From IMG/VR virus record IMGVR_UViG_3300010158_000060, positions 1 through 64,000 of that record: 64,000 nt of DNA; one strand, written 5' to 3'. Of this stretch, positions 1,151 to 18,937 are shown in pieces; positions within the stretch are counted from its first letter, which is position 1, and each line of letters begins with the position of its first letter. The stretch comes from a virus. The translations under genes and the position numbers were made by a program. The notes under the pieces are model-generated. The model was not told the DNA's origin and ran no database searches. It worked only from the letters and a program-made list of their open reading frames with translations.

Positions 1151-1732
1151 ATGAGAGAGTTTAAGACACCTGATTTATCAGCACCGAGATATAGACCTGA
1201 AGTATCTAATCTTTTAGACAAAGAGTTCTTTGATGGATTTAAAAAAAAGTATCCTAGATATGCTAAGTATGAAAACAGCATGTTAAAGAATATAACAAAG
1301 ACATTTAATAGAACAGTGTATAATATGGTTGTTGATAGTAGAGATGGTGTTCAACTACCTGATCAAATTGGATGGCTTTTTGTAGGAACATGTCAACAAA
1401 GTAAGAAAAGAAATGTTGATTTTTCTAAATCTAGACAGTATGGTGTAGAAGTGAATAATAATAATTTTGCTACGGATGGAAAGTTAGCAAAGATATTCTT
1501 TACAAGCAATGCACTAAAACATAAAATGAAAAATAGAGAGTATTGGACTTTTGTTGCATGTAGAGATTTTAAAAGACTTGTTGCTAAATCATATCCTGAA
1601 AATTGGAATATGTACAGAGTAGTAGAGAATAATAAAAAAATCAAAAAACTATATCAACAAGTATACTATGCGGGAAAGGAAGCGGCACTTACCCAAAATG
1701 CTCTTAAAACATATAATGAATTTGAATTATGA
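1151..1732 (+). CDS. IHF/HU-like basic protein of the crAss-like tail module
   Basis: Basic 193-aa ORF with an HU-like stretch (ITKTFNRTVYNMVV..DGVQLPDQIGWLFV) and a late FVACRDFKRLVAK segment. Its position before ring/tail genes matches the crAss-like gene order. Confidence 0.55.
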   Translation: MREFKTPDLSAPRYRPEVSNLLDKEFFDGFKKKYPRYAKYENSMLKNITKTFNRTVYNMVVDSRDGVQLPDQIGWLFVGTCQQSKKRNVDFSKSRQYGVEVNNNNFATDGKLAKIFFTSNALKHKMKNREYWTFVACRDFKRLVAKSYPENWNMYRVVENNKKIKKLYQQVYYAGKEAALTQNALKTYNEFEL

Positions 1733-2400
1733 CAACAGTTGGTGAAGCAATATCAAGAATGAGAAACACTCTTAAAGCAGTAAAAGAAGATCCATTCTTA
1801 ACTGATAGAGTGATTTATTTATCTCTTTTAAAGTATGGTCAAACATTACTTAAAAGAGAAGACAACCAGTATAGACTTATGAAAATAAGTTCTATATTTT
1901 CTGTATTACCTTTTGTAGAACTTATAGATGTAGATAAGATTGAAGCTGGATGTACAGGAGTATATTCAGGATGCTACTTTAAAAGGACTAAAGAAAAAAT
2001 TCCTTCTATATTAAATGGTGTACTAGGTCCTATTATACGTACTGTATCTTCAATAGATGGTAGTGATATTATGTTTAGAACAAATCCTGGTACTTGGGTT
2101 TCTATAACAAGATCAACTACTTTTAAATATAACACAAGAAAATATTTTTGGTTTTTAAATGGCTATTTGTATCTACCTAATGTTGATTGGGAGGCCATAA
2201 GAATAGAAGCTATATTTGATGGTGATATCACAGCTTATCAATGTGATCCAGAAGATCAATGTAAACTTAAACAAGATCAACCATTTCCATTTCCTGATTA
2301 TTTATTTTCAGAAATAGAACAGTATGCACTAAAAGAATTAACCATGATTGCTCAAATACCAGTTGACGGTACTGATGACGGTCAAAATATTTTAAGATAA
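1729..2400 (+). CDS. Putative tail ring/adaptor protein
   Basis: ATGA overlap with the upstream gene. N-terminal helical pattern (TVGEAISRMR...LTDRVIY), YFWFLNGYLYL and a C-terminal PFPFPDYLFSEI resemble crAss-like ring proteins (recall plus synteny). Confidence 0.55.
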   Translation: MTTVGEAISRMRNTLKAVKEDPFLTDRVIYLSLLKYGQTLLKREDNQYRLMKISSIFSVLPFVELIDVDKIEAGCTGVYSGCYFKRTKEKIPSILNGVLGPIIRTVSSIDGSDIMFRTNPGTWVSITRSTTFKYNTRKYFWFLNGYLYLPNVDWEAIRIEAIFDGDITAYQCDPEDQCKLKQDQPFPFPDYLFSEIEQYALKELTMIAQIPVDGTDDGQNILR

Positions 2401-3452
2401 TGGACTTTAATTATACACTCAAATACAGAACATTTGACCAATTGATGGAAGATGTTCAGATTGATTTACCAAGCTTTGCTTTAGAGAACATGATTGAGCC
2501 ACAGCAATTAATTAAACTTGCTAGAAAGATCAATTATGATTTAGGTCTTAGAATCAATCAAACTAAAGAAGTGGTACTAGATATCTGTCATGGAAGAGTT
2601 AAGCTCCCAGACGACTTCTATGTATGGAATTTTGGTATGTCCTGCCATGAAAGAACAGAGCATGTTGGTTATGATGGAAGAGTTGGTGGAACTAATATAC
2701 AAGAGGTTCCATTAGGAACTGTAAAATATCAAGAATTTCCTGGTGGTGTAGATAGTTGTGCTGTAGCAACAGTTAACTGTAGAACCTGTAATTCTAATCC
2801 ATGCAACCACACAGCTGCTTGTGGACTTAATACACCTATCACAAATACAACACCAACTTATGATCCAGAGAATCCTTATGGAGATACATGTGTAGCTCCA
2901 AGAGTATTTATGAATTGTAAAGGAGAGTCATATGAATTAATCCAAGTAGTTCACTCAGGACTTACAAGAAAATATAATACACTTGTTCAGTTAAGAATGA
3001 AACCAAGTCAGAACATAGAATGTGAATGTCCTAACTTGTATTATAATGGTCCAGATGAAGGTTGGCTTAAAGATGGTTTTCTTTTTACTACTTTCCAAGA
3101 TGGTCATGTTTATGTAAATTACCAAGGAGAACTACAAGATGAGAATGGAAACTTAATGGTTCCTGATCATCCAAGACTTAATGATTACTATGAATATGCA
3201 TTCAAGAAAAGAATTCTTGAAAACTTATATTTGAATGGAGAGGATGTAGCTCAAAGATTACAAATCATTTTACCTGAACTAAAAGATGCTAGAAATAATG
3301 CTCTTAGTTTAGTTAACACTCCAAACTTCAGAGAGATGGAGCAACTATGGTGGACTAATAGAAGAGCTCAGTATTCTAAATACTATGACATGTTTAAAGC
3401 TCCAACATTTGGTAATTATGCTAGGTTAAATTATAATACTAAAGTAATCTAA
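2400..3452 (+). CDS. Putative tail tubular/ring protein with Cys-rich insertion
   Basis: GRVKLPDDF and GFLFTTFQDGHVYVNYQG...DENGNLMVPD motifs are typical of crAss-like tail tubular proteins. It directly precedes the muzzle-like gene. Confidence 0.65.
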   Translation: MDFNYTLKYRTFDQLMEDVQIDLPSFALENMIEPQQLIKLARKINYDLGLRINQTKEVVLDICHGRVKLPDDFYVWNFGMSCHERTEHVGYDGRVGGTNIQEVPLGTVKYQEFPGGVDSCAVATVNCRTCNSNPCNHTAACGLNTPITNTTPTYDPENPYGDTCVAPRVFMNCKGESYELIQVVHSGLTRKYNTLVQLRMKPSQNIECECPNLYYNGPDEGWLKDGFLFTTFQDGHVYVNYQGELQDENGNLMVPDHPRLNDYYEYAFKKRILENLYLNGEDVAQRLQIILPELKDARNNALSLVNTPNFREMEQLWWTNRRAQYSKYYDMFKAPTFGNYARLNYNTKVI

Positions 3453-3453
3453 G

Positions 3454-6400
3454 ATGGCAGATATGCAAGATACTTCCCAGACTATAACGGATAGTTTTAT
3501 AAAGGGGCTTAATAAAGATTCAGATTCTTCATATGTTACAGACGGTATGTGGACACATGCTGTCAACATGGTGAATAACTCTAAGACAGGTAAAGTAGGT
3601 TCAATATCTAATGAAGCTGCTAATTATATTTGTTTTAATGCTGGTGCATTTATGCCTAGTATTGCTGTAGAAAAATTAGTAATAGGGACTGTATATCTTT
3701 TTTCAGATAAGTGGATAATATTTACAGCGGGTCATAATACAAATGGTCAGCCTGTAAGTTCTGAAATTGGTTTATTTGAAGAAGAACAATGTAATTATAA
3801 ACCTATTGTAATTGATGCTTGTTTAAATTTTGATAAAAGATATTTAATATCTGGTGTATCAAGATTGAAAGAAGATTGTACATGGCAAGTATATTGGGGT
3901 GATGGTTTAAATCCAGATAGATATTTAAATGTTGGAGATCCACATACATGGCCTGGACCAGATTATTCCTACATAACATCTATAGGAGCTAATGCAAATT
4001 ACTACCAAGGACCTGGAGGAACTAAAATACTTTGGCCAAATGTACAATGGATAAAAAAATGTGAAGTTGTTAATGACTGTAACATATGTGAAAACACAAA
4101 CAAATTAGATTGTGAGCATATTAGATTAGCTAGACTTATGACTACACCTTGTTTAAACTTAACAAGAGGACAACAAGGGGGTACACTGGCTAACGGGACA
4201 TATTTTGCTCTTATAGCATATACTATAAAAGGACAGAAAGTAACTGATTATTTTGCACAAAGTAATTATCAGTTTATTTACTCACCTCAAGATCTTCAAG
4301 GATCACTTACTTTAAACATATCTGCAGATAATGTAAACTTTGATGAGTTTCAATTAGTAATGGTGAAGTGTGTTAACCAACAAACTGTAGCGCAGTTAAT
4401 GGGTATATACTCCACTAATACATCTACCGTAAGTATTGATCAAATTGATAATGGAGCTAACATAACAATACCTCTAGAACAACTTCCTTTACAAACTCCA
4501 GTATTTGAAACTTCAAATCAGATAGCAGAAGTAAATAATTATTTGCTAAGAGTTGGACCAAGAAGTAAGTTTGATTTTAATTATCAACCATTAGCTAACT
4601 TAATTAGAACTAAGTGGGCTTCTGTAGAATACCCTGCAGATTACTACATAAAAGGTGGTAACAAAACTAACTATATGAGAGATGAAGTATATTCATTTTT
4701 TATTAGATGGGTATATAATACAGGAGATAAAACTTCTACTTATCATATCCCAGGAAGACCACCTAGAAACTTTAATGTTCCTAACGGAGCAAGTTTAATT
4801 GAAAATGCTATTTTAATTGGTAATCAAAATACATTATACTCAGATGATAAAGTATTTGAAGTTTATAATACTGCTACAATAGACAATTCATCCTCACTAG
4901 TCGGTACTAATACTGATGACGGGGGAACTGTTATAGCAACAGGAGACATGGGATATTGGGAATCAACAGAGAAGTATCCTGATAATAGACCAGACATATG
5001 GAATCCATCTGCACACTGTTGGACAGGTCAAGATGCAACTGTAAATCCGGAAGAGTTTGATTTATGTGGTAAACACATTAGACATCATAAATTTCCAGAA
5101 GATTATGCAGCTGGAAGTACAGCAGATACAGTAACACATTTCAGAAGAAATCCTTCTCCTCAAAATAATACTAATCAGTTTTTTATTAGACTAATGGGTG
5201 TTTATTTTGAAAATGTTGCTTTACCAAAAGATAATGATGGTAATGATATACCAGGTATTGTAGGTTTTGAAATTCTTAGAGGTTCAAGAGAAGGTAACAA
5301 AACAATTGTTGCTAAAGGAATGGTAAACAATTTAAGAACTTATCAGGTTCCTGGCTCAGGTAATATTAGTACTACAGGTTTATATCCTAATTATCCATTT
5401 AATACTATACAACCTCTTAGTGCTGCACTAGGGGGTCATGTTGCTAATTATAATGATCCATTTATTAGAGCCGGTATAAGTAATGATCCAAATTTTGTAT
5501 ATACTCAAAGTGTACCTGATGATATCTTTAGTTTTCACTCACCGGATACTATGATGACTACACCTTTTTTATCAACAACAGAATTTAAAACTTATGGTCA
5601 ATTATCAGGATACAGTCAACAAAATTTTAATACTCCATCAGATCATCCTAAATTTAAATTGTTATCAGATGTTATTATTGTACCAATGTTACTTGCAGGA
5701 TTTGTCGAAGCAATTATTTCATCTGTTGGCAAAAGAACTGCTGTATCTAAAGGTCCTGCATATCAAGATCTTGAAGTTCCAGATGTTAGAGGTAAAGAAT
5801 TAAAAAATCATGAAATTGGTGGTTTTGTAACTAGTTTTGGAAATTTTCTTGAACCGGGTGTCTTAGCAGCAGGATCTGGTGATACATTTACAGGAAGTGT
5901 AACTTTTAAACCCTTAAATGGTGGTGATTTTTATGGTGAAAGTGGTAAAATTACAACAGAACAAGAAGGTATTCAAGTAAGTAAACCTGGTGATTTTGAT
6001 ACAAAATTAAATAGTTTCATTGGTACATTTGGTACATTAAATGCTCAAAGTACTCTTCCATCTATTATAGCAAATATTGGAGCTGGTGGTGGTAATTATG
6101 AAGATACATATGAAGATGCTGCCAAAAGTGCTAAAGATGTACTAGGTGGTATATATACAGCTCAAGAAATACATTCTGAATGGAATGATTCAAGATATTT
6201 ACCTACAAGTTTAAAAGGGGTAAATAATACAGGTAGATTTGCTTATTATTTCTCAGAAGGAATGAGAGTAACTTTAGATCTTATTTATGTTTTAACAGCA
6301 TACAAACAATATGCATTACAACAAAAAGCATACGGTTTTTATGCTAACATTGAAAAAAACTTAAATACTGATACTACAAGATTTAAAATGGAAGATGGTT

Positions 6401-9009
6401 TTTATCTAAGAGATAATATACAATCTGTATCTAGATATCAAGACAATAATGGTACATGGAGATCTTATAATATTAATAATATAAAAAGATCACCTAAAGT
6501 AATTGTAAGAACTAAAGCCGGTAATAATCAAAACATAGGTCCTAAACTATTATCTGGTGATAAATCATTAACTACATTAGGTACATTAATACAAACAAAC
6601 CCTACTTCTTTACTTCCTATTGGAACAAGTTTACCAGATTTTGAAGGTAATATTGATAGAACTTTTTCATTACCTATTCAAAGTCACTATGGTGCTATAA
6701 GAGGTAGAGTAAGAAACCAATATGGTCAATTAGATTCTATCAAACAATTACCGGTTGGAACATGTGAGCAAAAGCTTTCTGATTATAATATTAATCCATC
6801 AACTATAGTTTGTGATTCTGTTAACATAATAAAAAATACAATTTTTAGAACTACTCTAATGTTTGGTGGTGATACTTACATTAATAGATATACTGAAAAA
6901 GATAGTATGTGTTTCTTCTTTGATTGGTTATATAATCAACCTAACGGTTTTGAATATAATTATTACTTGAGAAGTATGATTCCTAATCCAAGGTTTAGAT
7001 TAAATAGTAGATTTTATGATGCACAAGATTTTGCACAAGCATTTAATGTACTTAATGTAGCTAACTTACCTACTGTTATAAATAGTATAATTAGTATTAT
7101 TACAGGTGTTAGTAATTTTCCACCTGGTGAAGGTATATTACCAACTGATTTTTATAATTTAGATTATGTTAAAGATTCTAAAAAATATAATTACAATAAT
7201 GATAAAGCAGGAAACTATCCAGGATTCTTTACTTGTAAAGATTCTTATTTTTATATATCTGTATCTTCAATAAGAGACTTTTTTGTTGAGTCAGAAGTAT
7301 TAGTTGATTTTAGAACACAACCTGAAGAGATTGCAAGAAAGTATTACAATCCGTATAACTTTACAGATTATAATGCAATGTTTGATACTAATCCTCTTAT
7401 ACTTGGAGTAAATAGTTTTAATCAATATGATTATTCATTAAGTGTATCTAAGTTATATAATCAATATTTCTCATTAGGTAGTGTGCAAAGTAGATACTAT
7501 AATCCTAATGTAGCTGACTTATGTTATACATATTATCCAAATAGAATTATTTACTCATTACCTCAACAAGATGAAGCAATAAAAGATAGCTGGTTTGTTT
7601 ATTTAGTAAATAATTACAAAGCATTTAAGTCTCATGTAAGTGGTGTTAAGTCAATAAATAAATCTGGTTTAGTAATCACATTTAAAAATGATAGCCCTAT
7701 AATGTATCAGGGTGTGGATACTTTACAAACTGATTTAGGAACTAAAGTTACTTTAGGTGATGGAGGTTTATTTAGTCAAGCACCACAGCAGTTATCTAAT
7801 GCGGATAAACCATATGAATATGGAGCATCACAAAATAGATTGTCTGTAATATCTACACCAGTAGGTATATACTACATGTCTCAAGCTGCAGGTAAAGTAT
7901 TCTCAATTGGAGAAGGACTTCAAGAGATTTCTCAGCAAGGAATGAAATGGTGGTTCACTGTGTTCTTACCGTACAAATTAACACAAGACTTCCCATTGTA
8001 TCCTTATCAAGATAATCCAGTAGCAGGTATTGGATGTCAAGCAGTGTTTGATAATACAAATACTATTTTATACTTCTGTAAGAAAGATTATGAACTTAAA
8101 GATAAGTACAAAGGAAAAGTAACATACATTCCACTTAAAGGTGATAGCACAGGTGATTACTTTATGATTAATGGTAATACTACAGCTAAATTCAAACTTG
8201 GTGATCCAATCTTATTTAGAGATGCATCATGGACTATAAGTTATGACCCTAAAAATCAGTTCTGGATTAGTTTCCATGACTGGCATCCAGATCTATTCAT
8301 GCCTACTAAAGATGTATTTATATCTACAAAAGGTACCGGTGGTTGGAGACATAACTGGATCTGTGATAAGTATTGTAATTATTATGGTATTGATTATGCA
8401 TGTGAGATTGATGTTCCAATTACAACTGGTCAATCAGTTACTACTACAAGATCTGTTGAATACATAATGGAAGCATATAGAAAAACAGATAACTGTGTAG
8501 ATTCTTATCATGTACTAGATTATAACTTTGATACGGCTGTTGTATATAACTCAGAACAAGTATCGGGTTACTTAAATCTTAATATATATCCTAAGAATGA
8601 TCTTGCTCTTACAAGACAATTCCCAAGATTGAATCCAGTTACCTTAACTTCATTTGATATTTTATTTTCAAAAGAAGAAAACAAATATAGATTTAATCAG
8701 TTCTGGGATATTACAAAAGATAGAGGTGAGTTTCCAATTGGTACAGCTTACCCTGCTGGACAAGGACCATATGTATCTGGAACTACAACATTGTTAGGTA
8801 ATTATAGCAATTTAAATACATGGATTACAGAACCAGATGGTTTTAGAAGAGTATTAAATCAAAATAATCTTAACTATGCTAAGCCAGAATTACAAAGAAA
8901 AAAATTCAGACATTACATGAGTTTTATTAACTTCAAGAAAAATATATCTGGTAATACAAATATTGTTTTAAAAATTGATAATAGTAAAAATGAAATTTCT
9001 CTAAGATAA
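3454..9009 (+). CDS. Tail stabilisation / muzzle-like protein (1851 aa)
   Basis: N-terminal FIKGLNKD...AVNM, MRDEVYSFFIRW, FGGDTYINRY and C-terminal WTISYDPKNQFWISFHDWHP. Beta-rich composition and synteny after the tail tubular gene. Confidence 0.75.
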   Translation: MADMQDTSQTITDSFIKGLNKDSDSSYVTDGMWTHAVNMVNNSKTGKVGSISNEAANYICFNAGAFMPSIAVEKLVIGTVYLFSDKWIIFTAGHNTNGQPVSSEIGLFEEEQCNYKPIVIDACLNFDKRYLISGVSRLKEDCTWQVYWGDGLNPDRYLNVGDPHTWPGPDYSYITSIGANANYYQGPGGTKILWPNVQWIKKCEVVNDCNICENTNKLDCEHIRLARLMTTPCLNLTRGQQGGTLANGTYFALIAYTIKGQKVTDYFAQSNYQFIYSPQDLQGSLTLNISADNVNFDEFQLVMVKCVNQQTVAQLMGIYSTNTSTVSIDQIDNGANITIPLEQLPLQTPVFETSNQIAEVNNYLLRVGPRSKFDFNYQPLANLIRTKWASVEYPADYYIKGGNKTNYMRDEVYSFFIRWVYNTGDKTSTYHIPGRPPRNFNVPNGASLIENAILIGNQNTLYSDDKVFEVYNTATIDNSSSLVGTNTDDGGTVIATGDMGYWESTEKYPDNRPDIWNPSAHCWTGQDATVNPEEFDLCGKHIRHHKFPEDYAAGSTADTVTHFRRNPSPQNNTNQFFIRLMGVYFENVALPKDNDGNDIPGIVGFEILRGSREGNKTIVAKGMVNNLRTYQVPGSGNISTTGLYPNYPFNTIQPLSAALGGHVANYNDPFIRAGISNDPNFVYTQSVPDDIFSFHSPDTMMTTPFLSTTEFKTYGQLSGYSQQNFNTPSDHPKFKLLSDVIIVPMLLAGFVEAIISSVGKRTAVSKGPAYQDLEVPDVRGKELKNHEIGGFVTSFGNFLEPGVLAAGSGDTFTGSVTFKPLNGGDFYGESGKITTEQEGIQVSKPGDFDTKLNSFIGTFGTLNAQSTLPSIIANIGAGGGNYEDTYEDAAKSAKDVLGGIYTAQEIHSEWNDSRYLPTSLKGVNNTGRFAYYFSEGMRVTLDLIYVLTAYKQYALQQKAYGFYANIEKNLNTDTTRFKMEDGFYLRDNIQSVSRYQDNNGTWRSYNINNIKRSPKVIVRTKAGNNQNIGPKLLSGDKSLTTLGTLIQTNPTSLLPIGTSLPDFEGNIDRTFSLPIQSHYGAIRGRVRNQYGQLDSIKQLPVGTCEQKLSDYNINPSTIVCDSVNIIKNTIFRTTLMFGGDTYINRYTEKDSMCFFFDWLYNQPNGFEYNYYLRSMIPNPRFRLNSRFYDAQDFAQAFNVLNVANLPTVINSIISIITGVSNFPPGEGILPTDFYNLDYVKDSKKYNYNNDKAGNYPGFFTCKDSYFYISVSSIRDFFVESEVLVDFRTQPEEIARKYYNPYNFTDYNAMFDTNPLILGVNSFNQYDYSLSVSKLYNQYFSLGSVQSRYYNPNVADLCYTYYPNRIIYSLPQQDEAIKDSWFVYLVNNYKAFKSHVSGVKSINKSGLVITFKNDSPIMYQGVDTLQTDLGTKVTLGDGGLFSQAPQQLSNADKPYEYGASQNRLSVISTPVGIYYMSQAAGKVFSIGEGLQEISQQGMKWWFTVFLPYKLTQDFPLYPYQDNPVAGIGCQAVFDNTNTILYFCKKDYELKDKYKGKVTYIPLKGDSTGDYFMINGNTTAKFKLGDPILFRDASWTISYDPKNQFWISFHDWHPDLFMPTKDVFISTKGTGGWRHNWICDKYCNYYGIDYACEIDVPITTGQSVTTTRSVEYIMEAYRKTDNCVDSYHVLDYNFDTAVVYNSEQVSGYLNLNIYPKNDLALTRQFPRLNPVTLTSFDILFSKEENKYRFNQFWDITKDRGEFPIGTAYPAGQGPYVSGTTTLLGNYSNLNTWITEPDGFRRVLNQNNLNYAKPELQRKKFRHYMSFINFKKNISGNTNIVLKIDNSKNEISLR

Positions 9010-12000
9010 TGTATAACAAGAAGACTCTATCTAAAGCTACAGCTGAGTTGGACAAAGCTAAAGCTCCTAAGAAACCTAAAGATATAATCACTGATCCAAT
9101 GGGTCAGTGGAAGTATCCTGGTTTACCTACTAGAATTCCTGGTAATGATATTACCATGAAAGGAGTGGGTTATCCTGTATTAGGTGTAGCCAATAATGGT
9201 CAGAGAAAGATAATGCTTCCGGGAGCGGACTATACTTTTCCTGGAGCAGACTATGTGGATGAATACCCACAGATGAAAAAAGGAGGTACAAAAAAGAAAA
9301 GAAAGACTAAGAGTATAATGGGTATTAATAAACTCATGCAAAAAGGTCCTTTATTTGAAGACTACTCAAAAAAAATGTATGATCCAAATGTAAACTACTT
9401 TCAAGATGGTGGTGATAAGAAAGCTTCAGTAGAAGGATACCAAGATGAAAATATGTGGTTAGGAGATAAGTATAAAGATCTTGGAGCAACAGTTTCTAAA
9501 GGTAAAATAAGTGCTTCTGCAGGAAATTATTTTCCAATGATGACAACCGATCCTCAAAGTAATTTTAATCCCTATGTAAATTTAGCAGTAGACTTAGGTA
9601 AAGACAGAAATTTAAGTTTTGATTTTCAGCCTGATTATACAGGTGTAAACTTTACTAAAAGTTTTCAAGAAGGTGGTGCAAAAACATTATCTACAAGTAA
9701 ATCTAAAGATGGAACAATTACCAATAAAGTAAGGAGAGATGGTAAAACATTTTTGCAAGTTAAAAGTAAAGATGGAAAATACTATGAAAAAGAAATTCCA
9801 ACAGTTACCCGTGCTAAAGGTTTTGAAGCAGCAGTAAGTAAAAGTATTGGAAACCCAATGGACAGAGCTTATGATTATGTAGAAGGTCTTCGTACAAATG
9901 GAGAAGATCCTCAAGATAATTTAAGACATGCAACAGCTGGAAGATATGCTGCAGAAGGTTTATTAAAAAATGCCAGAGAAGGTTATATTCCTTTTCCAGA
10001 TGCTGTAAATAAAGCAACATCATGGTTAACAGCTAATGCATTAGGAGTTGGTCATGAACTAAGTACAATATTTCAAGATAAAAGACCTTGGGGAGTAAAG
10101 CTAAGAGAAGCTGGTGAAGATATTTATAATAATGGTGTAGGTGTTAATCAAGGTTTATCTGATAAATCTAATAAAGATAAAACACAAAACTTAAAAGATA
10201 GATCTTTAAACTATGAGTTACCTGATGGTTATGGAGAAGAACATCCTTTTCATAATAAATGGGTGGATCCTTACAGTAAAAAACAAGAAGGTGGTCCGCA
10301 AAATACATCTGGTCCTAGACAATATATGGATGAATATGAAGAAGAACAAACTATTCCTGAATTTACAGATGCTTATATGAAGCAAAGATATAAAGTTGAA
10401 CAATCAAATAAAAAAGCTCAAGACTTTAATAAAACTTATGCTGAATCTGAAAATTATAAAAGATTACTAGAAAAACAAGGTTACACACCTGAAGAAATAA
10501 AAAATAGAATTGCTTCAGTTACAGGGATTTCAGATTTTAATTACACAGATAATGGACCTAGCTGGGTTGGTGGTGATCCTGAAACTGGTAAAGAATTTAT
10601 AACTTATAATGTTATGGATCAAGGAGATTGGGCAAACTATGACTCAATTGCAGGACATGAGTGGGGGCATGTCGGAGTAGAATCAGGACAAAGCCCTCTC
10701 AAACAAGGAGAGCAAGATGCCTTTATTAATAGACTTAAAATAGACAATGTAAATAAGGACGAAGGGCACGCAGAACATGATAAAGCTCCTCAAGAAAATA
10801 GAGCAGATTTGTTACAGTTAAGACAACAACTTCAAGAGGCAGGTTTATTTGATTCTACAAAAACTAAAGAATTTACTAAAGATCATCTTAAAGAATATAA
10901 AAAATTAAGAAATTCTTCTGAAGAAAATTATGATAAGTTTCATAACAGAATGTTTAGATTATATGATGATAAAGATATCATATGGTTAATGAATAATATT
11001 GCTCAAAATAACAATAAACAAAATACTAATGATGATTTGCAAACAGCTCAGTATGGAATTGAAATGGAGCTTACTCCAGATGAGATTGAAGAATACAGAA
11101 AAGGTGGTTACATAGTAGAAGACATATCTGTACCAGAACTTAATCAAGCTCAGAAAGGTGGTGCTAAAGATAAATATGCTACTCATATTGGTGATGATGG
11201 TACTGTAGGAAGTACAAATGTACATACTGATAAGAATGGTACTATCACAACTAAAGTACAGGATTCAAAAGGTATAACACATTATAAAGTAAAAACAAAA
11301 GATGGTAAAGTATTTTATAAACAAGATGCTTCAACAACTTATCCAAAAAATAATTCTGTAGTTCCGGAAAATTATAAACCTGATCCTAGACAGATTGAAA
11401 TGAATGATGGACCAATGCAATCAGTAGATGACTTTTGGACATTACCTATTGGTATGAGTAGCGCAGGAGTTAGGGGTACAATAGGTTTAGCAAAAGGTTT
11501 AACTTCTCTTGGACGTAATGCTGCTAAGTCATCATTAGTACAAGCAACAAAGCAAGGTTTTAATCAAAGTTTAATTAAAAGTTTACCTGGATCTAATTTA
11601 AAGAATTTAGTTAATTCATATTTTACTACAAGTGGTATAAATAACTATATAGATCAAAATAGTGATGTAAGAAGAGCAACTAAAAATGCTTATGATGATC
11701 CTACACTTGATAATGTTGTAGATGCTGTAGGTGAAAATACCTGGAATGCACTCAACTTTTCAGGACTTAATGTAGGCAAAGGTGTAAAACAATTAGGTAA
11801 ATATGCTACAACACAAACACCTTTAAAAAATACATACAAAGTATTACCTGAAGGTACATTTAAGAATTATTCTAAACTTAAAACAAAAGGTAAATCATAT
11901 AGAGTTGCTGGTCATGATGCACATGCTGATTTTACTGAATCAGGTTTATTGCGTTCAAAAACTAACTTACCTGAAAAGGCAACTATTTTAGATAGGATGG

Positions 12001-13385
12001 AAAAAAGACCTACAGCATTTCCTTCATTTCAAAAAAATTATGCTGACCTAAGCTATTTACCTGAAAATGGAGGAGTAGTTTTTGAAACAAGTTTGCCAAC
12101 TTTTAAAAGAGGTCAACTTAATCCTGTTACTGGAGAAAAAATAAAGGGTAGACATTATGCTCATAGAGTTATTGATCCTCAAACTGGAAAAACTCTTACA
12201 GAAATTCCAGCATCTGATATAGATGTTTATGAAGGTTCTGCTAATTGGTTAAAAGGACATAAAAAAATATCTGGACAACAACCTCAAGCTTCTGCTAATA
12301 AAAATAAAATACCAGGACTTCCAAGAGTAGTTAGTTTTTTAAATGGTTTAAACTATGGAATGAATGATATTATAAAAGGAAGAAAGTTTTCTGAAACATT
12401 TCCTATAACAAAAAAGCAAAAAGCTAAAATAGAATATTTGCAAGATCAAGCTCATAAAGGAGGACTTGAATTTATGAATGATTATCTTTATCGTATTCAT
12501 GATGGTGTACCACATTATGGTGAAATACATCCTGATGTTAGATCAAAAATAGATAAAATAACGGATTTAGAAGATCCTACATTAGATGCTTTTAAAAGAA
12601 AATTTGATATTACTCATAATTTAATAGGTCCTTATGGTAATGCTCAACATCATTTAGCAAATGCTGATGAAAAAGAATTAGTAAAAGCACTTAATAATGG
12701 TACTTTGGATGCTAAAACTGTAGATTATATAAGAAGAAATAAACATAAAATAAGAGGTGTTAATTGGCATCCTAAAAGTATTACTTTAAGAAATAAAGGA
12801 GTTTACTATGAAAGCCCTGAAGCTATAAGAAATGTGACAGTTCATGAAGCAGGACACAGTATGCAACAATTGGGTTATGGAAGTAACACAATTCGGAATA
12901 GTTTGTCTATGTATGATCCTAAATATCCATATGATATTGCAAATGAAAATACTAAATTTGGTAAAGAATTTAGAAATGCTCAAGTTTTTCCAAAAGAAAA
13001 ACAGTACTTATGGGAAGCAAGTCCATTAGAAGTTCATTCAGAAGCAATGGCTGCTAAAGATAAAATCTATAGAGAGTTTATTAAAAAAGGAATGAATAAA
13101 ATGGATGCTTTAAGATATTTAAGAAATCCTGATAATACTTTAGCAGATGAGATTATTAAAGAAGGTTCATTAAATAGATTTTTTAAGGATGGTATATCAA
13201 ATGATCAAAAAAGAAAACTTATTAAAATGTTACCTGCAATAATACCTGCTGGAGCTGCAGTAAATTATATGCCTAAACCTCAAAAATCTAAACAAATGAA
13301 GAAAGGTGGTATTGTTGCTGATTTAACTCATGCAGAAATTCAAGACTATATTAAACAAGGTTACATTGTTGAAGATGTAGACTAA
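9009..13385 (+). CDS. Multi-module (polyvalent) putative virion cargo protein (1458 aa) with two HExxH zincin motifs
   Basis: HEWGH at 10656-10670 and HEAGH at 12843-12857. A DNLRH..HE..DIYNNGVG module is present, and repeated [QK]xGG motifs fall between modules. Confidence 0.7.
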   Translation: MYNKKTLSKATAELDKAKAPKKPKDIITDPMGQWKYPGLPTRIPGNDITMKGVGYPVLGVANNGQRKIMLPGADYTFPGADYVDEYPQMKKGGTKKKRKTKSIMGINKLMQKGPLFEDYSKKMYDPNVNYFQDGGDKKASVEGYQDENMWLGDKYKDLGATVSKGKISASAGNYFPMMTTDPQSNFNPYVNLAVDLGKDRNLSFDFQPDYTGVNFTKSFQEGGAKTLSTSKSKDGTITNKVRRDGKTFLQVKSKDGKYYEKEIPTVTRAKGFEAAVSKSIGNPMDRAYDYVEGLRTNGEDPQDNLRHATAGRYAAEGLLKNAREGYIPFPDAVNKATSWLTANALGVGHELSTIFQDKRPWGVKLREAGEDIYNNGVGVNQGLSDKSNKDKTQNLKDRSLNYELPDGYGEEHPFHNKWVDPYSKKQEGGPQNTSGPRQYMDEYEEEQTIPEFTDAYMKQRYKVEQSNKKAQDFNKTYAESENYKRLLEKQGYTPEEIKNRIASVTGISDFNYTDNGPSWVGGDPETGKEFITYNVMDQGDWANYDSIAGHEWGHVGVESGQSPLKQGEQDAFINRLKIDNVNKDEGHAEHDKAPQENRADLLQLRQQLQEAGLFDSTKTKEFTKDHLKEYKKLRNSSEENYDKFHNRMFRLYDDKDIIWLMNNIAQNNNKQNTNDDLQTAQYGIEMELTPDEIEEYRKGGYIVEDISVPELNQAQKGGAKDKYATHIGDDGTVGSTNVHTDKNGTITTKVQDSKGITHYKVKTKDGKVFYKQDASTTYPKNNSVVPENYKPDPRQIEMNDGPMQSVDDFWTLPIGMSSAGVRGTIGLAKGLTSLGRNAAKSSLVQATKQGFNQSLIKSLPGSNLKNLVNSYFTTSGINNYIDQNSDVRRATKNAYDDPTLDNVVDAVGENTWNALNFSGLNVGKGVKQLGKYATTQTPLKNTYKVLPEGTFKNYSKLKTKGKSYRVAGHDAHADFTESGLLRSKTNLPEKATILDRMEKRPTAFPSFQKNYADLSYLPENGGVVFETSLPTFKRGQLNPVTGEKIKGRHYAHRVIDPQTGKTLTEIPASDIDVYEGSANWLKGHKKISGQQPQASANKNKIPGLPRVVSFLNGLNYGMNDIIKGRKFSETFPITKKQKAKIEYLQDQAHKGGLEFMNDYLYRIHDGVPHYGEIHPDVRSKIDKITDLEDPTLDAFKRKFDITHNLIGPYGNAQHHLANADEKELVKALNNGTLDAKTVDYIRRNKHKIRGVNWHPKSITLRNKGVYYESPEAIRNVTVHEAGHSMQQLGYGSNTIRNSLSMYDPKYPYDIANENTKFGKEFRNAQVFPKEKQYLWEASPLEVHSEAMAAKDKIYREFIKKGMNKMDALRYLRNPDNTLADEIIKEGSLNRFFKDGISNDQKRKLIKMLPAIIPAGAAVNYMPKPQKSKQMKKGGIVADLTHAEIQDYIKQGYIVEDVD

Positions 13386-13443
13386 ATTTTTAAAGTTTAA
13401 ACAATAAATTTATTTTTAGTATATTAAATTATAATCTTTACAA

Positions 13444-16122
13444 ATGGAAAGAAGAACAGTTAGAATTTACAAAGCTCCCAACGGACAAGGTGAATATATA
13501 AATAAGACAGGTCAGTTTTTGAAGAAAGCACAAATGGGTGTTGAAACAAGAAGTGAGGAAGTCATGCAGGAAAAACAAATAGAAGCATTAAAACAATATG
13601 TAACTGGGGCTTTAGATAATCAAATGGAGCCAGAAGAAATATATAGATTATTAGTTTCTAAAGGTGTTCCTAAAGAAATAGCATATCCTATTTTAACTCA
13701 AGTTATGCAAGAAATGGAAGCTCCAGAAGAAGAAGAGCAACCAGAAACTAAAGAAGGATCTGCTGAAGAATCTAAAATTGGTCAGTCTGAGTTTCAACCT
13801 GTAGGTCAAGAGAATCAAGAGACTGAAGAAGAAGATGCTGCAAGTGATGGTATGAATTATGATAATTCATATGCTGATGAAGAAGACTCAAATGTTATTG
13901 CTAACAGTGAAGAAGAATTTCAAGATGGTGGACCAATTTTATCATATGAACAATTATCAGCTAATGAAGGTGAAGAAGAAGATACTGGTGATGATTTAAA
14001 TGACAGATTAGCTTCACTTGAAGACTTTGTAGGTAAAACTGAAGATGATGACTTTAAGAATTTTGGAAAAGACATCAGTGAGTATGAAGGTAATTATACA
14101 CCTATTGAATGGGATACATTAGGAGATGGCTATGGTTACTATAAAAAAGGAGGTTCTAAAAAGAACTTTACAAAAAATGTATTATCTCTTATCAAAAAAC
14201 AAGAAGGTGGTGATGCAGAAGAGTCTACTGAAATAGGTAGAGGTAATAAAAAAGATACTTTAACAAATGATGTTTCTAAAATTAAATCTTCATTTACTGA
14301 TAAACTAAAAGAAGTATCTAGTAAAGCTGCTATAGATTCTATCTATGATAAGATGATGAAGTCTAATGATCCTGAGTTAATGCAATCTGCACAAGAACTT
14401 GCTCAGAACAGACAGAAGTCAAGTCAAATGGGAAGTTTTGAACCAGTTGCTCAACAAGGTGGTTATATAGGAGAAGATCAGCCTGACATGTTTAGTCAAG
14501 GTGGTTTTGATATGCCTCAAGCACAAAAAGGAGGAATGCAAAAACTTGGTGACTTCTTGTTAGGAGAAAAATATACTACAGCTAATAATCCATATAATGC
14601 TAAGACTGGTGCTTTGTATAAAGATCCTTTGACAGGTTTAACTCCTGTAGCAAGAACTGTACATAAAAGAGGTATATTAGGAAGACCTAAAAAATATACG
14701 GATTACTATTCTAAAAGTGGTAACATTAATGTTCCAGGAGAAAGTGTATCTAAAAAAGATGTAAAAGCTGATTCAAAAAAACGTGAGTATAACATACCTG
14801 ATGACCAATATGAAAAATTGTCTAGAAGAGAAAAAAGACAAGAAAGAAAATGGGCTAAGTTAGAGAATGAAGATAAAGAATTTATGTCTAATCCTAATCT
14901 TATGCAACAAAATGATGGTTACATGCAACAAATCAATGATGCAAATGGTAATAGATTAGAAACACCTAAGCTAGTTGGAATTTCAAAAGAATTAAAACCA
15001 GAATTATCATATGAAAAAAGAATGAATATGGATAATGCTGATTTTTATAATAATGGATATAAAGAACAACCTTTACCTGATGGATTAACTGCAGAAGAAG
15101 AGGAAGCTATGGCTCAATCAAATCTTGAAAGAGATGCTATTTTAGAAAAATATACTGCAGAGAATGAGGCTGCTAATGAAGCAGAAGCTCAAAGAAAAAA
15201 ACAAGCTTCACTTTTTTATCTAAATTATCCTGAAGGTAATACTGATAGACGTATTGGATTAGGTGATTATACTGATGGAGATCTTGCTGTAAATTATGCT
15301 AAAACTAGAGATAGAGCTTATAATCAATTTGCTAAAGCAAGAGATTTTAAACCTGATCTTAAAAAGTTTTTTGAAGATCCTGAAACTATTAAAAAAAGAA
15401 AAGAAGAAGAGGAAGCAAGAAAACAAATGCAAGAAGAAGGTACAGAAGCTGAGTATGAAAAAAGATATGGTGGTTTACCAAAAGCTCAAATAGGTGTTAA
15501 ATCTCCTACAAATATGTTAAATCCTGCATCTGATGCAACAGTTATGAAACCTGGAACTGGTCCGTTAGCTATGCCTCCATTAGTTTCATCTGCAAAAAAA
15601 GAAGATTGGCGCGCACCTATGTTAGCACCAGCTGATGAAAATGATGATGATTCTGCATTACCCGATATATTAGATCCAAATAAATTTAAAGAAACTGTTC
15701 TTAATACAAAAGATACACAAGGAGAAGATGATTTAATAGCACAAGATGTAGAAACAAAAAGAAAATTTAATGGTGTTAATTTTGATAACAAATTAAATAT
15801 GGGTCTTGATGCTTTCACTGGAACAATGCGTGGTTTAAATCAAGCTAAGCAGCAAAATGAAATGTATGCAAATAACTTTAATGCTGATAGTCTTTATGGA
15901 GCTTCTACTAATAAAGACAAAGGAGATTATGTAGCTTATGGTCAACAAACAGGAATGTTTAGACCAAATGAAACAGGTCAAGAAACTATGGGTAGATTTG
16001 CATATGGTCAATCTGGTGGTTATATGGAAGAAGGCGGTTTTGCTGAGGGAGATGAAGTTGATATGACTGAAGAAGAATTAGCAGAATTTATTGCTAACGG
16101 AGGTGAAGTAGAATATTTATAA
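13444..16122 (+). CDS. Acidic low-complexity putative cargo/internal virion protein (892 aa)
   Basis: Long E/D-rich ORF with about ten xxxGG-type motifs, located in the cargo gene block. Confidence 0.65.
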   Translation: MERRTVRIYKAPNGQGEYINKTGQFLKKAQMGVETRSEEVMQEKQIEALKQYVTGALDNQMEPEEIYRLLVSKGVPKEIAYPILTQVMQEMEAPEEEEQPETKEGSAEESKIGQSEFQPVGQENQETEEEDAASDGMNYDNSYADEEDSNVIANSEEEFQDGGPILSYEQLSANEGEEEDTGDDLNDRLASLEDFVGKTEDDDFKNFGKDISEYEGNYTPIEWDTLGDGYGYYKKGGSKKNFTKNVLSLIKKQEGGDAEESTEIGRGNKKDTLTNDVSKIKSSFTDKLKEVSSKAAIDSIYDKMMKSNDPELMQSAQELAQNRQKSSQMGSFEPVAQQGGYIGEDQPDMFSQGGFDMPQAQKGGMQKLGDFLLGEKYTTANNPYNAKTGALYKDPLTGLTPVARTVHKRGILGRPKKYTDYYSKSGNINVPGESVSKKDVKADSKKREYNIPDDQYEKLSRREKRQERKWAKLENEDKEFMSNPNLMQQNDGYMQQINDANGNRLETPKLVGISKELKPELSYEKRMNMDNADFYNNGYKEQPLPDGLTAEEEEAMAQSNLERDAILEKYTAENEAANEAEAQRKKQASLFYLNYPEGNTDRRIGLGDYTDGDLAVNYAKTRDRAYNQFAKARDFKPDLKKFFEDPETIKKRKEEEEARKQMQEEGTEAEYEKRYGGLPKAQIGVKSPTNMLNPASDATVMKPGTGPLAMPPLVSSAKKEDWRAPMLAPADENDDDSALPDILDPNKFKETVLNTKDTQGEDDLIAQDVETKRKFNGVNFDNKLNMGLDAFTGTMRGLNQAKQQNEMYANNFNADSLYGASTNKDKGDYVAYGQQTGMFRPNETGQETMGRFAYGQSGGYMEEGGFAEGDEVDMTEEELAEFIANGGEVEYL

Positions 16123-16132
16123 TCTTAATAAG

Positions 16133-18937
16133 ATGAAAGTAAGAATTAAAAAAGTACCGCAAGCTAGAACAGGATACCAAGTACAAGGTTCTTTAGCTAA
16201 TGATGTACCAGCTATGGGTGGTGCAGATTACAATGCTTATATAGGTAAACCAAATCTAAAAGCCAGCAAGTATATAACGGCTGTTCCTAGAGAAGAAGCT
16301 AATCTAGAAGCAGAAGGAGGAGAAACTGTATATGGTGACATCAATGGTGATGGAATGCCAGAACACAAAACTATCAAAGGTCCAAGACACTCTGGAGGAG
16401 GTGTTCCATTAAACTTACCTGATGACACTTTTATATATAGTGACTTCAGAGGTATGAACATTAAAGAACCTGAGTTCTTACAAATGTTTGGTAAAGGTAG
16501 TAAGGGTAAGAAAAGTTATACTCCAGCGGCACTTGCTAAACAATATGATATTGAGAAATACAGAAAGATTCTTCAAGATCCAGACTCAGATGCAATTGAT
16601 AGAAAAACTGCAGAGCTGATGATTAAAAATTATCAAAACAAACTTGCAGCATTAGCATTAGTACAAGAAGGTAAGAAAGGATTCCCTCAAGGTATGCCAG
16701 CTGTTGCAAAACCTATGCTTACAGAAAATCAATATTCAGAAGATACATTTGTTGATCCTTCTATTAAAGAATTTGCTGGACAAATAGATGGTAAATTACA
16801 AGAAGTAGAACAAAAACAAAATACTGAAGAACAAGATCCTGACTATGCTCAACAAGCTGAAGAGATGAATGAAGGTCAACCTATTGCTCAACCTACTGCA
16901 CAGTATGGTATGTCAATGGGTGGATATGATTTACCTTATGGTGATGATATGCCAGAAGCAGAGTATGGTATGTCTATGGGTATTACTTCTAAGAACTATA
17001 TGGGAAGACCTAAGTCTGCTATGTATGCTAGAGGAGGTGCTTTAAGAACATACCAAGGTAAAGAAGGTGCTAGTTCTACTGGTGCTACAGGAGGTGCTCC
17101 AGCTGATAGTGATGTAATTGATGTTACAGGTTTGGATGAAAATGCAGCTAATGCTAAATATTATACTTGGATGGATAGACATCCAAATAAAGAACCTAAA
17201 ATAATGTTGAATGGTAAAGCTGCTAGATATGTACCACCATCTAAAAAAGACAGTCCAACACTTGACGATCTTAAAGCATTGCATCAATCTCAATACAAAT
17301 ATTTAGAAACAGAATTAAATGATCCAAAATCAAAAGTTAGAGAAGCATATTTAACAGAATATAAAAATGCATTACAAAATAGAAAAGCTTATGGAAATAG
17401 TCCAAATGCAAATAAAAGGTTTGAAATGTATTCTAAAATGGATATAAAACCTGAAGATGCAATAAAAAGTTTATTAGATCAAAAGAAAAGAAATGATTCA
17501 ATCAAAGAAAAAGGTATAGATATGCAACTTTTTTCAAATGAGAATGCTCAACTTTTAACACCAGAAAAAATGGTTGCTGCTGGTATTAAAAAAGGTGATG
17601 GCTCACCTATGACTCTTGATGATGCTAAAAAAATACATAAAGAATACACAAATAATAATTGGACAACTAGAGATCAAGTTGCAAAAGCAGCAGGTGTTAC
17701 AATACCTGATCCAAAAACAACCATATTAGAACAAGCTAGTACTCATGCAATTGCAGGAATGGCCAAACAAAAAAAGAATGGTACTTATAATAATTTTGAT
17801 GATGATCAATCATATAAAATGTATCAATTTTTAGGAAAAGATAAAAGTAGAGAAACTAATACTGGTGCTGCAGATGAAAGTTCAATGGGAAGTTTATATG
17901 GTTCTGAGTACAACACAATGTCTCCAATAGATGGTGTTCCAACAAATTCAACATTAGGTCATGGTTTTGATCCAGCTATTGATAAAGGAAAATTTGAAGC
18001 TGTACCTGAAGAAAAAAATAATCAAGTAGCAGGACCATGTCCAGAATGTACTAGAGCTGATGGTAGTGCTTATGTACCAGAAAGAAATGCTGATGGTAGT
18101 TGTCCTCCATGTGTAGAAAGTGGTACTCCTGCTCAAGAGACTGAACCTAAAATGTGGTTGCAAGATAAAATGAAAATTGCAGGTGCTTTTGGTGATTTAA
18201 TGGGTGCTAAGAAATACATGCCTTGGGCTGCTAAGTATGATTTGAGAACACCAAAACCTACATTCATGGATCCAACAAGAGAACTTGCTGCTAATGCTGA
18301 GCAAGCTAATATACAAACACAAGCTCTTGGTCAGTTTGCAGGACCTCAAGCATTGTCTGCTAGATCTTCTGGTGTAATGGGTGCTGCTAGTAAAAATGCT
18401 GCGGATGTAATGGCTAAATACAATAATGCCAATGTAAACATTGCTAACCAATTTGAATCCAATATTTCTAATATTGAGAATCAAGAGCAACAATTAAATA
18501 CTGCTTCTCAACAAAAACTATATGATCAGAATACTATTTCTAATCAACAGTATGATAATACTAAGAGAGCACTGAGAAATAATTTATTAAATCAAACTAC
18601 ATCAGGTATTACAAACATGATGAAAACAGATGCTATGAATCAGATATATCCTCAGTTTGATGTTGATGCATCAAGTGGTGGTAAAGTTACTTATGATCCA
18701 ACAAAATCTAGAAAAGTTAAACCGGAAGTATCAGGAAGTAGTTATGAAGCTTTCCATAAAGAATGTTCAAAATTATATAAAGATGAAACTCAGATTGAAA
18801 AATGTGTAAATAAAAAAATGAATACTGCATCATCTAGTGGAGGTGAAGATGATGATGATGCTCAAAAGGTTATGTCAATATATAAACAAAAAGGAGGATT
18901 TATGTATGGTGATATAACTTACCCATTCATACTCTAA
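16133..18937 (+). CDS. Putative cargo/ejection protein (934 aa)
   Basis: ANLEAEGGETV...GPRHSGGGVPLNLP..TFIYSD motif recalled from crAss-like cargo proteins. Has an N/Q/A-rich coiled-coil C-terminal part and a CxxC..CxxC segment. Confidence 0.65.
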   Translation: MKVRIKKVPQARTGYQVQGSLANDVPAMGGADYNAYIGKPNLKASKYITAVPREEANLEAEGGETVYGDINGDGMPEHKTIKGPRHSGGGVPLNLPDDTFIYSDFRGMNIKEPEFLQMFGKGSKGKKSYTPAALAKQYDIEKYRKILQDPDSDAIDRKTAELMIKNYQNKLAALALVQEGKKGFPQGMPAVAKPMLTENQYSEDTFVDPSIKEFAGQIDGKLQEVEQKQNTEEQDPDYAQQAEEMNEGQPIAQPTAQYGMSMGGYDLPYGDDMPEAEYGMSMGITSKNYMGRPKSAMYARGGALRTYQGKEGASSTGATGGAPADSDVIDVTGLDENAANAKYYTWMDRHPNKEPKIMLNGKAARYVPPSKKDSPTLDDLKALHQSQYKYLETELNDPKSKVREAYLTEYKNALQNRKAYGNSPNANKRFEMYSKMDIKPEDAIKSLLDQKKRNDSIKEKGIDMQLFSNENAQLLTPEKMVAAGIKKGDGSPMTLDDAKKIHKEYTNNNWTTRDQVAKAAGVTIPDPKTTILEQASTHAIAGMAKQKKNGTYNNFDDDQSYKMYQFLGKDKSRETNTGAADESSMGSLYGSEYNTMSPIDGVPTNSTLGHGFDPAIDKGKFEAVPEEKNNQVAGPCPECTRADGSAYVPERNADGSCPPCVESGTPAQETEPKMWLQDKMKIAGAFGDLMGAKKYMPWAAKYDLRTPKPTFMDPTRELAANAEQANIQTQALGQFAGPQALSARSSGVMGAASKNAADVMAKYNNANVNIANQFESNISNIENQEQQLNTASQQKLYDQNTISNQQYDNTKRALRNNLLNQTTSGITNMMKTDAMNQIYPQFDVDASSGGKVTYDPTKSRKVKPEVSGSSYEAFHKECSKLYKDETQIEKCVNKKMNTASSSGGEDDDDAQKVMSIYKQKGGFMYGDITYPFIL

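Follow-up and report, generated by a model that had tools for sequence, protein, structure and literature searches.

The 64,000-nucleotide stretch analyzed here (the window) corresponds to positions 1 to 64,000 of the IMG/VR virus record IMGVR_UViG_3300010158_000060. It is part of the genome of an uncultured marine crAss-like phage, as indicated by the muzzle and ring genes (Pfam) found directly upstream of P1, the first of three large genes considered in this work. P1 (9009..13385, 1458 aa), P2 (13444..16122, 892 aa) and P3 (16133..18937, 934 aa) are encoded on the + strand, as are all the features within them described below. A first-pass annotation of this DNA had proposed that the three are cargo proteins punctuated by a short peptide, acting as a protease cleavage or assembly signal and perhaps also as a shuffling junction between modules. 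The analysis confirms this peptide, [Phe/Tyr/Met/Ala/Lys]-[Gln/Lys]-x-Gly-Gly, as a genuine junction element that selection maintains at the protein level. The pattern seems to be undescribed so far; a limited search of the open-access literature on crAss-like phages did not find any description of it.

Cargo gene block behind the muzzle gene

The record from which the window derives has 72,333 bases, is rated ~60% complete and does not include the head module. The relatives used for comparison are uncultured viral contigs, among them G004 (121,672 bases, 121 open reading frames [ORFs], rated 100% complete). The cargo block starts with the gene of the muzzle protein (3454..9009, + strand; Pfam crAss_MUZ, E value of 3.3e-30), preceded by those of ring proteins R2 (1729..2400) and R1 (2400..3452), both of which match crassvirus tail rings. 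Seven large + strand ORFs follow the muzzle gene, and after them comes the replication module on the − strand. P1, P2 and P3 occupy the positions of the cargo genes behind the muzzle gene in crAss001, with P1 sitting where gp45 (C1) does, and the order muzzle-P1, equivalent to gp44-gp45 in crAss001, was kept in nine related loci. In their account of the virion, Bayfield et al. 2023 (PMC10172136) report the detection of the crAss001 cargo proteins by mass spectrometry. Because of their gene position and this precedent, P1, P2 and P3 are probably packaged in the virion and injected into the host cell.

P1 is a variable modular cargo protein in which a constant N-terminal domain and a constant C-terminal tail enclose a variable middle, P2 is a conserved and largely disordered cargo protein and the richest carrier of the motif, and P3 is a strongly conserved cargo protein and a weak carrier. 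Neither P1 nor P3 had a tblastn match among 50,697 GenBank phage records, and Pfam contained no family matching P2 or 35 of its relatives. Searches with NCBIfam of P1 to P3 plus three head-module ORFs of G004 gave nothing meaningful.

Enrichment, conservation and location of the motif

All the motif coordinates in the first-pass annotation proved exact when compared with the codon table and the translations (AQYG at P1 residue 680, for example, lies at position 11046 by arithmetic). When each protein was shuffled 1000 times, [QK].GG was found six times in P1 versus 1.5 expected (p = 0.002) and six times in P2 versus 1.0 expected (p = 0.002), and the Gln form Q.GG was found four times versus 0.5 and five times versus 0.4, respectively. 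When 10,683 gapped patterns of three residues were scanned without bias over P1 and P2, Q.GG ranked first (9 versus 0.9, z of 8.1) and AQ.G fourth. The other 22 ORFs of ≥150 aa contained 3 copies versus ~5.9 expected, so the enrichment in P1 and P2 holds against both shuffled sequence and the other ORFs of the window, and the tail, RNA polymerase and replication proteins do indeed lack a comparable density. The assertion that three proteins carry the motif is right for P1 and P2 but overstated for P3, a weak carrier only, because P3 has one copy versus 1.0 expected (p = 0.64), with no enrichment of Q.GG, and the 120 members of its family have 258 versus 141.

The glycine codons of the motif (GGT 20, GGA 9 and GGC 1) follow the overall usage of these genes, indicating that selection acts on the protein and not on the DNA. 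The 15-nucleotide words encoding the motif have on average just 9.9 of 15 bases in common, and on these two grounds a DNA-level recombination signal was rejected. We also considered avoidance of the motif in the neighboring 1040-aa cargo protein and found no signal (7 copies in nine orthologs versus ~4.7 expected). Further downstream, a polyvalent-like protein of 2240 aa (39874..46596, + strand), with LysM at residues 1917 to 1956 and a weak match to ART-PolyVal (E value of 0.0016, below the cutoff), has one copy versus 0.8 expected.

Enrichment extends to the families of these proteins. In a collection clustered at 90%, we found 83 relatives of P2, with identities down to ~26%, which together have 514 copies of [QK]xGG versus 82 expected. 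Searching 1.84 billion cluster representatives with a profile gave 575 P2 family members; the 141 new representatives listed among them contain 764 copies versus 154 expected, 120 of the 141 being individually enriched at least 3-fold, and for the more complete pattern [FYM][QK]xGG the figure is 306 versus 18.3 (16.7-fold). The P1 family (120 proteins) has 568 copies versus 150 expected. The conserved motif-like pieces of the P3 family are the AQYGM.MGG repeats and a C-terminal Y...GGF.

Several sites are fixed in the P2 family, namely, [EY][FY]QDGG at residue ~160, YKKGGS at 233, KKQEGG at 252 and AQQGGY at 336, as well as a C-terminal tandem, YGQxGGYMQxGGY, at a constant place. In the alignment, the motif columns stand out as conserved islands amid variable, partly acidic sequence, and the looser forms AQMG, KRYGG, FSQGG and AQIG also occupy conserved columns. 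The most distant relatives have KAQxGG at residues 27 to 30, where P2 of the window has KAQMG.

An AlphaFold2 (AF2) model of P2, built from 46 aligned sequences, had a mean predicted local distance difference test (pLDDT) value of 51.5, with 469 of the 892 residues below 50. All 11 P2 sites listed in the first-pass annotation fall within or border segments with pLDDT of <50, and three of them come directly after predicted helices (21-30|AQMG, 239-252|QEGG and 646-674|RYGG). From the N terminus, FQDGG (residues 159 to 163, 13918..13932) lies within an acidic disordered stretch and is followed by a unit formed by YKKGG, the amphipathic helix 239-252 and KQEGG (residues 233 to 256, 14140..14211), and by a cluster of AQQGG (336 to 340), FSQGG (350 to 354) and AQKGG (360 to 364) at 14449..14535, in which residues 326 to 369 have pLDDT of <50. 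Near the C terminus, the tandem GQSGG-Y-MEEGG (residues 855 to 865, 16006..16038) immediately precedes a tail mini-domain, ...DMTEEELAEFIANGGEVEYL (16039..16119, pLDDT of ~70 to 77), whose last 25 residues are confidently predicted as strand-helix-strand; GGx[VIL]E[YF] ends 119 of the 141 P2 representatives listed. In P3, the motif-like elements are the AQYG/AEYG repeats at residues 254 to 283 and KQKGG (918 to 922, 18884..18898), located before the C-terminal FMYGDITYPFIL. The four P3 sites listed in the first-pass annotation all fall in low-confidence segments. The models thus place the P2 and P3 sites in low-confidence stretches or at helix ends, and the motif-bearing stretches are probably disordered.

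Structure searches with P3 yielded little: Foldseek of the model against PDB and BFVD gave no match at E values up to 0.001, and phmmer against PDB sequences gave only weak antibody light-chain matches, which we regard as chance. Residues 636 to 660 (18038..18112) contain CPxC ... CPPC, conserved as CP.C...C.PC across the family, a cysteine pattern that resembles a zinc ribbon, whereas the rest of this cargo protein is helical. Conservation in P3 is highest over residues 1 to 129 (16133..16519), with many invariant columns across 48 sequences despite AF2 pLDDT values of 27 to 43. Its strings GPRHSGGGVPL and DDTFIYSD resemble strings of the CARG1 domain in gp45 and in the P1-family protein P0134, a likeness that no search confirmed.

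Module borders, insertion, fusion and fission

The 120 proteins of the P1 family range from 800 to 2537 aa, cover between 6 and 54% of P1 and are highly mosaic, variously carrying SET, SLT, LysM, YkuD, ART-PolyVal, CBM_14, DUF5872, DUF5754 or crAss_CARG1. BLAST alignments of P1 with these relatives tend to end at the motif, since 37.7% of the 446 internal endpoints of high-scoring segment pairs (HSPs) lie ≤12 aa from the six strict motifs versus 9.9% at random (p = 0.0016). The first of the six, MKKGG (residues 89 to 93, 9273..9287), is found at the end of the N-terminal domain, with 25 HSP ends in residues 81 to 100. FQDGG (131 to 135, 9399..9413) has 54 ends in residues 121 to 140, FQEGG (219 to 223, 9663..9677) has 11 HSP starts in residues 201 to 220, and KQEGG (425 to 429, 10281..10295) has 7 starts in residues 421 to 440. 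AQKGG (714 to 718, 11148..11162), with 53 ends in residues 701 to 720, comes after an internal copy of the tail mini-domain, IEMELTPDEIEEYRKGGYIVEDI... (residues 681 to 707, 11049..11129, as read from the sequence), where residues 681 to 700 gather 48 HSP starts at a coverage of ~77 HSPs. The last, MKKGG (1430 to 1434, 13296..13310), stands before the C-terminal tail mini-domain, IVADLTHAEIQDYIKQGYIVEDVD (13308..13382). Both the internal and the C-terminal tails of P1 are of the same kind as the tail of P2. Two borders, near residues 921 to 940 and 1081 to 1100, do not have a motif.

The syntenic orthologs of P1 show the same architecture. The nine of them are 512 to 2241 aa long, apart from one copy that a contig end cuts short, and the N-terminal sequence is constant in all nine, while the tail is common to eight (not L008). 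Among 13 P1 relatives, 13 of 16 Pfam envelopes are free of the motif, and the remaining three are all DUF5872, with an intrinsic GQHGG. The HSP endpoints, the low-confidence location and the Pfam envelopes therefore agree with the earlier proposal that the motif is found at module borders. The region of P1 described in the first-pass annotation as ART-like had no ART model match in Pfam, PHROG or NCBIfam, and we discarded the label because the stretch of P0154 (residues 571 to 759) homologous to P1 residues 921 to 1095 lies outside the ART-PolyVal domain of P0154 (841 to 977). A phmmer search of P1 against PDB sequences gave no match, and the best ESM Atlas score for residues 1 to 135 was 0.76, which we take as a lead only.

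Comparing P1, P2 and P3 with each other by BLAST gave a single suggestive unit, in which P1 residues 84 to 113 (9258..9347) align with P2 residues 228 to 256 (14125..14211) at 40% identity over 30 residues (E value of 0.36). The unit consists of a motif, a basic amphipathic helix and a second motif, and it recalls the tail-barrel-binding helix of crAss001 gp45, located just after S-A-Y-G-G.

Gain of modules at the motif can be seen in P2. Among 11 sequences inspected, two extra modules, unrelated to each other, were inserted precisely where the tandem motif meets the tail, one of ~150 aa (P0012, P0018, P0024, P0035, P0042 and P0043) and one of ~65 aa (P0027 and P0046). A Gly-Gly element is found downstream of the inserts, in most of them as a new tandem copy. 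Fusion and fission involve two small domains. Three relatives have DUF6321 as a separate gene of 90 aa, and three others have it fused downstream of an 80-aa module, with MK[ST]GG as the connection; the start Met of the free form aligns with the residue that directly follows Gly-Gly in the fusions, and no joint is present in the split forms. What is newly seen here is this exact alignment of the start of a free gene with the residue that follows Gly-Gly. DUF5872 is encoded on its own in head modules, as a protein of 112 aa, and is also embedded in three P1-family proteins, where it is directly followed by KQDGG, KQYGG or KEYGG. Together with the block breaks of P1 and the insertions of P2, these cases in the relatives bear out the suggestion that the motif acts as a shuffling junction.

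Four or more copies were found in just 3 of the 121 ORFs of G004, namely, the P1 ortholog, the P2 ortholog and a very basic 130-aa protein encoded downstream of the capsid gene, with five copies versus 0.6 expected, one of which probably belongs to a CxxC zinc knuckle. Five further relatives have the same cluster, whose small basic proteins contain the elements MKKGG, FKKGG and PKAQLG and have ...KKGG[VIM][VI]K.KKK ends. In the head modules of relatives (L018:3872-5358 and L023 to L027), this cluster of fast-changing small proteins, with 19 to 29% Lys plus Arg, surrounds the DUF6321 gene, in G004 downstream of the capsid gene. It includes DUF6321, DUF5872 and proteins starting with M..K.PKAQLGA. 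DUF6321 is also present in 537 GenBank phage records, mostly of marine cyanophages and pelagiphages.

A proposed uncut joint or a possible processing site

Whatever its function, the motif is a conserved peptide code that marks the ends and joints of a variable set of cargo. The data show that it is enriched, that its positions are conserved, that it lies at helix ends or in stretches that are probably disordered, and that modules are gained, lost, fused and split where it occurs. We tentatively favor, over a cleavage site, an uncut hinge or docking joint. The joint would stay intact, with the two glycines providing a sharp flexible turn and the bulky residue plus Gln/Lys a short handle, helix cap or docking stub. 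Such joints would allow a bead-on-a-string cargo chain to enter the particle, to be kept there in an extended state and to leave through the portal and the tail barrel one module at a time. Loading or anchoring would be the role of the two constant ends, the N-terminal part and the C-terminal strand-helix-strand tail, with the variable middle as the payload. Where they discuss ejection, Bayfield et al. 2023 (PMC10172136) propose partial unfolding and ordered extrusion of the crAss001 cargo.

The best-studied counterpart of P1 is crAss001 C1 (gp45; crAss_CARG1, PF25725; PMC10172136), which is likewise encoded directly after the muzzle gene and is a long, partly disordered virion cargo protein. 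It has bulky-x-x-Gly-Gly elements of its own, IFDTGG near the N terminus and YTGG..AKGGKVRTKKKK before a basic C-terminal tail, and such elements also bracket its two resolved segments as given in the structural description. Gp45 is not enriched for [QK]xGG (1 versus 1.66 expected), and the part of Bayfield et al. 2023 (PMC10172136) that treats it mentions neither the motif nor cleavage ("cleav," "proteoly" and "protease" appear 0 times). P1 shares the gene position of C1, but the portal-binding domain of C1 was not detected, as CARG1 gave no match in P1, P2 or P3 of the window at E values up to 10. Also negative were BLASTP of gp45 against the three proteins (nothing significant, best E value of 0.14) and hhalign of the N- and C-terminal profiles of P3 against gp45 (probability of <1%). 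One member of the P1 family, P0134, does have a CARG1 domain, at residues 865 to 985 (E value of 2.3e-13), with Gly-Gly elements on both sides.

The resolved parts of gp45 bear directly on cutting. In the structural description (PMC10172136), its portal-bound piece spans residues 425 to 552 and the helix bound to the tail barrel spans residues 214 to 245. In the gp45 sequence, residues 425 to 428 are A-F-G-G, and S-A-Y-G-G ends at 210, with the helix starting 4 residues later. The chain is thus modeled as continuous through A-F-G-G-W, which indicates that in virions a related site escapes cleavage after Gly-Gly. As evidence against cutting, this is only moderate, since the gp45 sites lack the Gln/Lys position. 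The mass spectrometry of crAss001, as described in its methods, used trypsin on one excised gel band and is uninformative about chain ends and sizes, and the gel described in Shkoporov 2018 has bands from 15 to >300 kDa.

P1 also resembles the polyvalent proteins (Iyer, Burroughs, Anand, de Souza, Aravind 2017, PMC5512222) in being large, highly mosaic, multimodule and probably virion associated, and HExxH zincin signatures are present in about half of the members of its family. It differs from them in the hub domains: there is no Pfam match to MPTase-PolyVal or ART-PolyVal in P1, only two bare HExxH motifs. It has the mosaic architecture of this class without recognizable hub domains. The main text of Iyer 2017 (PMC5512222) describes no conserved junction peptide ("linker" and "crAss" appear 0 times).

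Several points weigh against an uncut joint. All the conserved residues are N-terminal of the invariant Gly-Gly, as in protease sites of the adenovirus, African swine fever virus (ASFV) and SUMO type. The start Met of free DUF6321 aligns just after Gly-Gly and the split forms have no joint, which is exactly what cleavage predicts. The crAss001 elements N-A-F-G-G and S-A-Y-G-G, without Gln/Lys, may be a different element. Low AF2 confidence does not prove disorder. Finally, the absence of a recognizable protease is weak evidence, as ~80 of the 110 ORFs of G004 scanned with Pfam had no match.

The strongest competitor, though we consider it unlikely, is the processing site of the first-pass annotation, in which a protease would cut after Gly-Gly and free the modules of cargo polyproteins during maturation or after ejection. 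It would also cover the small basic head-module proteins of the relatives, made and loaded as polyproteins. The motif has an invariant Gly-Gly end with specificity only upstream, and it is accessible, at module borders, 8 to 30 residues from N termini and 6 to 30 from C termini. Fusion and fission of DUF6321 are equivalent to within a residue, and the DUF5872 beads end with a motif where the free protein ends. The five copies in the basic 130-aa protein of G004 recall adenovirus core-protein precursors, and processed internal proteins have precedents in adenovirus, ASFV and phiKZ. Gly-Gly maturation cleavage is carried out by clan CE cysteine proteases, such as the adenovirus protease, ASFV pS273R and SUMO/Ulp1, and SUMO precursors end in Gln-x-Gly-Gly. 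The likeness to these systems lies in a short Gly-Gly-ending consensus on internal or core proteins of DNA viruses, small basic ones included, although, compared with the adenovirus consensus, the bulky residue of the motif is more distant from the cut by one position.

A matching enzyme is what the searches failed to provide. Neither Pfam, with 110 of the 121 ORFs of the complete G004, nor PHROGs, with 38 structural-module ORFs, detected a maturation protease or one specific for Gly-Gly. No protease family was found by Pfam or PHROGs between the terminase and tail genes of G004, and a 424-aa ORF between its portal and capsid genes had no match in Pfam, PHROGs or NCBIfam. Six-frame searches were also negative, with Peptidase_C48 found in 0 of 4 records, all incomplete, and Peptidase_S78, Peptidase_C39 and Peptidase_C5 each in 0 of 5 records, three complete genomes among them. 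The phage thus differs from the clan CE systems in having no clan CE protease gene in the records searched (Peptidase_C48, Peptidase_C5 and Pfam of G004). T4 and phiKZ-like phages eject internal proteins with short terminal signals that are cut by a prohead protease at Glu-ending sites. Although these also are ejection-destined internal proteins delimited by a short repeated motif, no prohead protease of the T4, phiKZ or HK97 kind was found here with Pfam, PHROGs or Peptidase_S78. Double-glycine leaders cut by C39 transporters differ as well, since, besides the negative search for Peptidase_C39 in 5 records, the leader-like LTxxEIxxYxxGG of the cargo proteins is internal or C-terminal and predicted as a folded strand-helix-strand, not an N-terminal leader.

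The scans of the window and its relatives yielded only a DUF2201-type putative metallopeptidase with VWA in the replication module and a ClpS homolog. The former is a single 435-aa ORF in the window (55698..57005, − strand), near LAGLIDADG (58178..59026) and SegE GIY-YIG (59069..59509) endonuclease genes, and in G004 (L020:13028-15430) a LAGLIDADG/HTH endonuclease ORF interrupts the gene and leaves it in two parts. The ClpS homolog, an N-degron adaptor, is encoded beyond the window next to a helicase gene (G000:C1:70108-70308, − strand) and was present in all five genomes of the lineage searched (E values of 4e-11 to 1.5e-14). Tyr, Phe, Trp or Leu follows Gly-Gly at 25 to 48% of the sites in the P2 and P3 families versus 13 to 15% background, with no such excess in the P1 family, and ClpS might deal with Tyr/Phe-starting fragments resulting from such cutting.

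A further candidate enzyme lies within P1 itself. Two HExxH motifs can be read from its sequence, HEWGH (residues 550 to 554, 10656..10670) and HEAGH (1279 to 1283, 12843..12857), the second without a family model match, while phrog_24249, a "tail protein," matches residues 543 to 674 around the first. The zincin labels given to these regions are right about the two motifs but found no zincin model match in Pfam, PHROG or NCBIfam. Iyer et al. 2017 (PMC5512222), in discussing zincin domains, proposed that these process polyvalent proteins, which counts in favor of processing. However, just 57 of the 120 proteins of the P1 family and 2 of the 9 syntenic orthologs have HExxH, and we rejected the P1 zincin as a general processing enzyme because it is so patchy while P2 keeps its motifs throughout.

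Other features argue against cutting at every copy, such as conserved tandem copies 6 residues apart and intermotif pieces of 6 to 18 aa. P22- and T7-like podophages eject uncut proteins, which also weighs against cutting. Altogether, polyprotein processing at the motif is unsupported, though not refuted: no Gly-Gly-type or prohead protease was found in the ~60% complete record of the window or in the relatives rated 100% complete. A tailed phage with a Gly-Gly code of the adenovirus/ASFV style, in which strings of effectors and, in relatives, small DNA-binding peptides would be loaded as polyproteins and cut by a protease of an unrecognized family or by a host enzyme, appears slightly less probable still. 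If it were true, modules could be added or removed freely, leaving the loading signals at both ends untouched.

It is improbable that the motif acts as a multivalent sticker, a weak cohesive aromatic/Met-Gln/Lys-Gly-Gly element in disordered chains by which the cargo and the small basic proteins would form a dense phase, co-packaged or plugging the tail barrel. P2 has FUS-like YGQ-GGY runs, P3 has AQYGMSMGG repeats, more than half of P2 is modeled below pLDDT of 50, and there are many copies per chain, with conserved tandem repeats. P2 is mostly of the Gln type (five Q.GG versus one K.GG), and the small basic proteins of the relatives show copies of the Lys type, such as MKKGG and FKKGG. Sticker grammars are usually position independent, yet here single sites are fixed across relatives of 26 to 30% identity, and the location at module borders is left unexplained. 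Even less probable is a passive linker or recombination scar, a functionless peptide traveling with modules or marking a joining microhomology, for although modules are inserted and exchanged exactly at the motif, fixed sites are conserved where flanks have diverged to saturation, the full five-residue pattern is strongly enriched in the P2 representatives listed, and neither the 15-nucleotide words nor the Gly codons are constrained at the DNA level.

Crassviruses are among the most abundant phages known, and they load and eject megadaltons of protein cargo. A short and testable code at the ends and joints of this cargo provides a handle on its recognition, threadability and diversification, and in practice giant ORFs that lack annotation can be divided into modules by following it. 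Cut joints would represent a maturation system new to tailed phages. Uncut joints would be a novel type of linker-handle, with which it might be possible to load phage particles with foreign modules.

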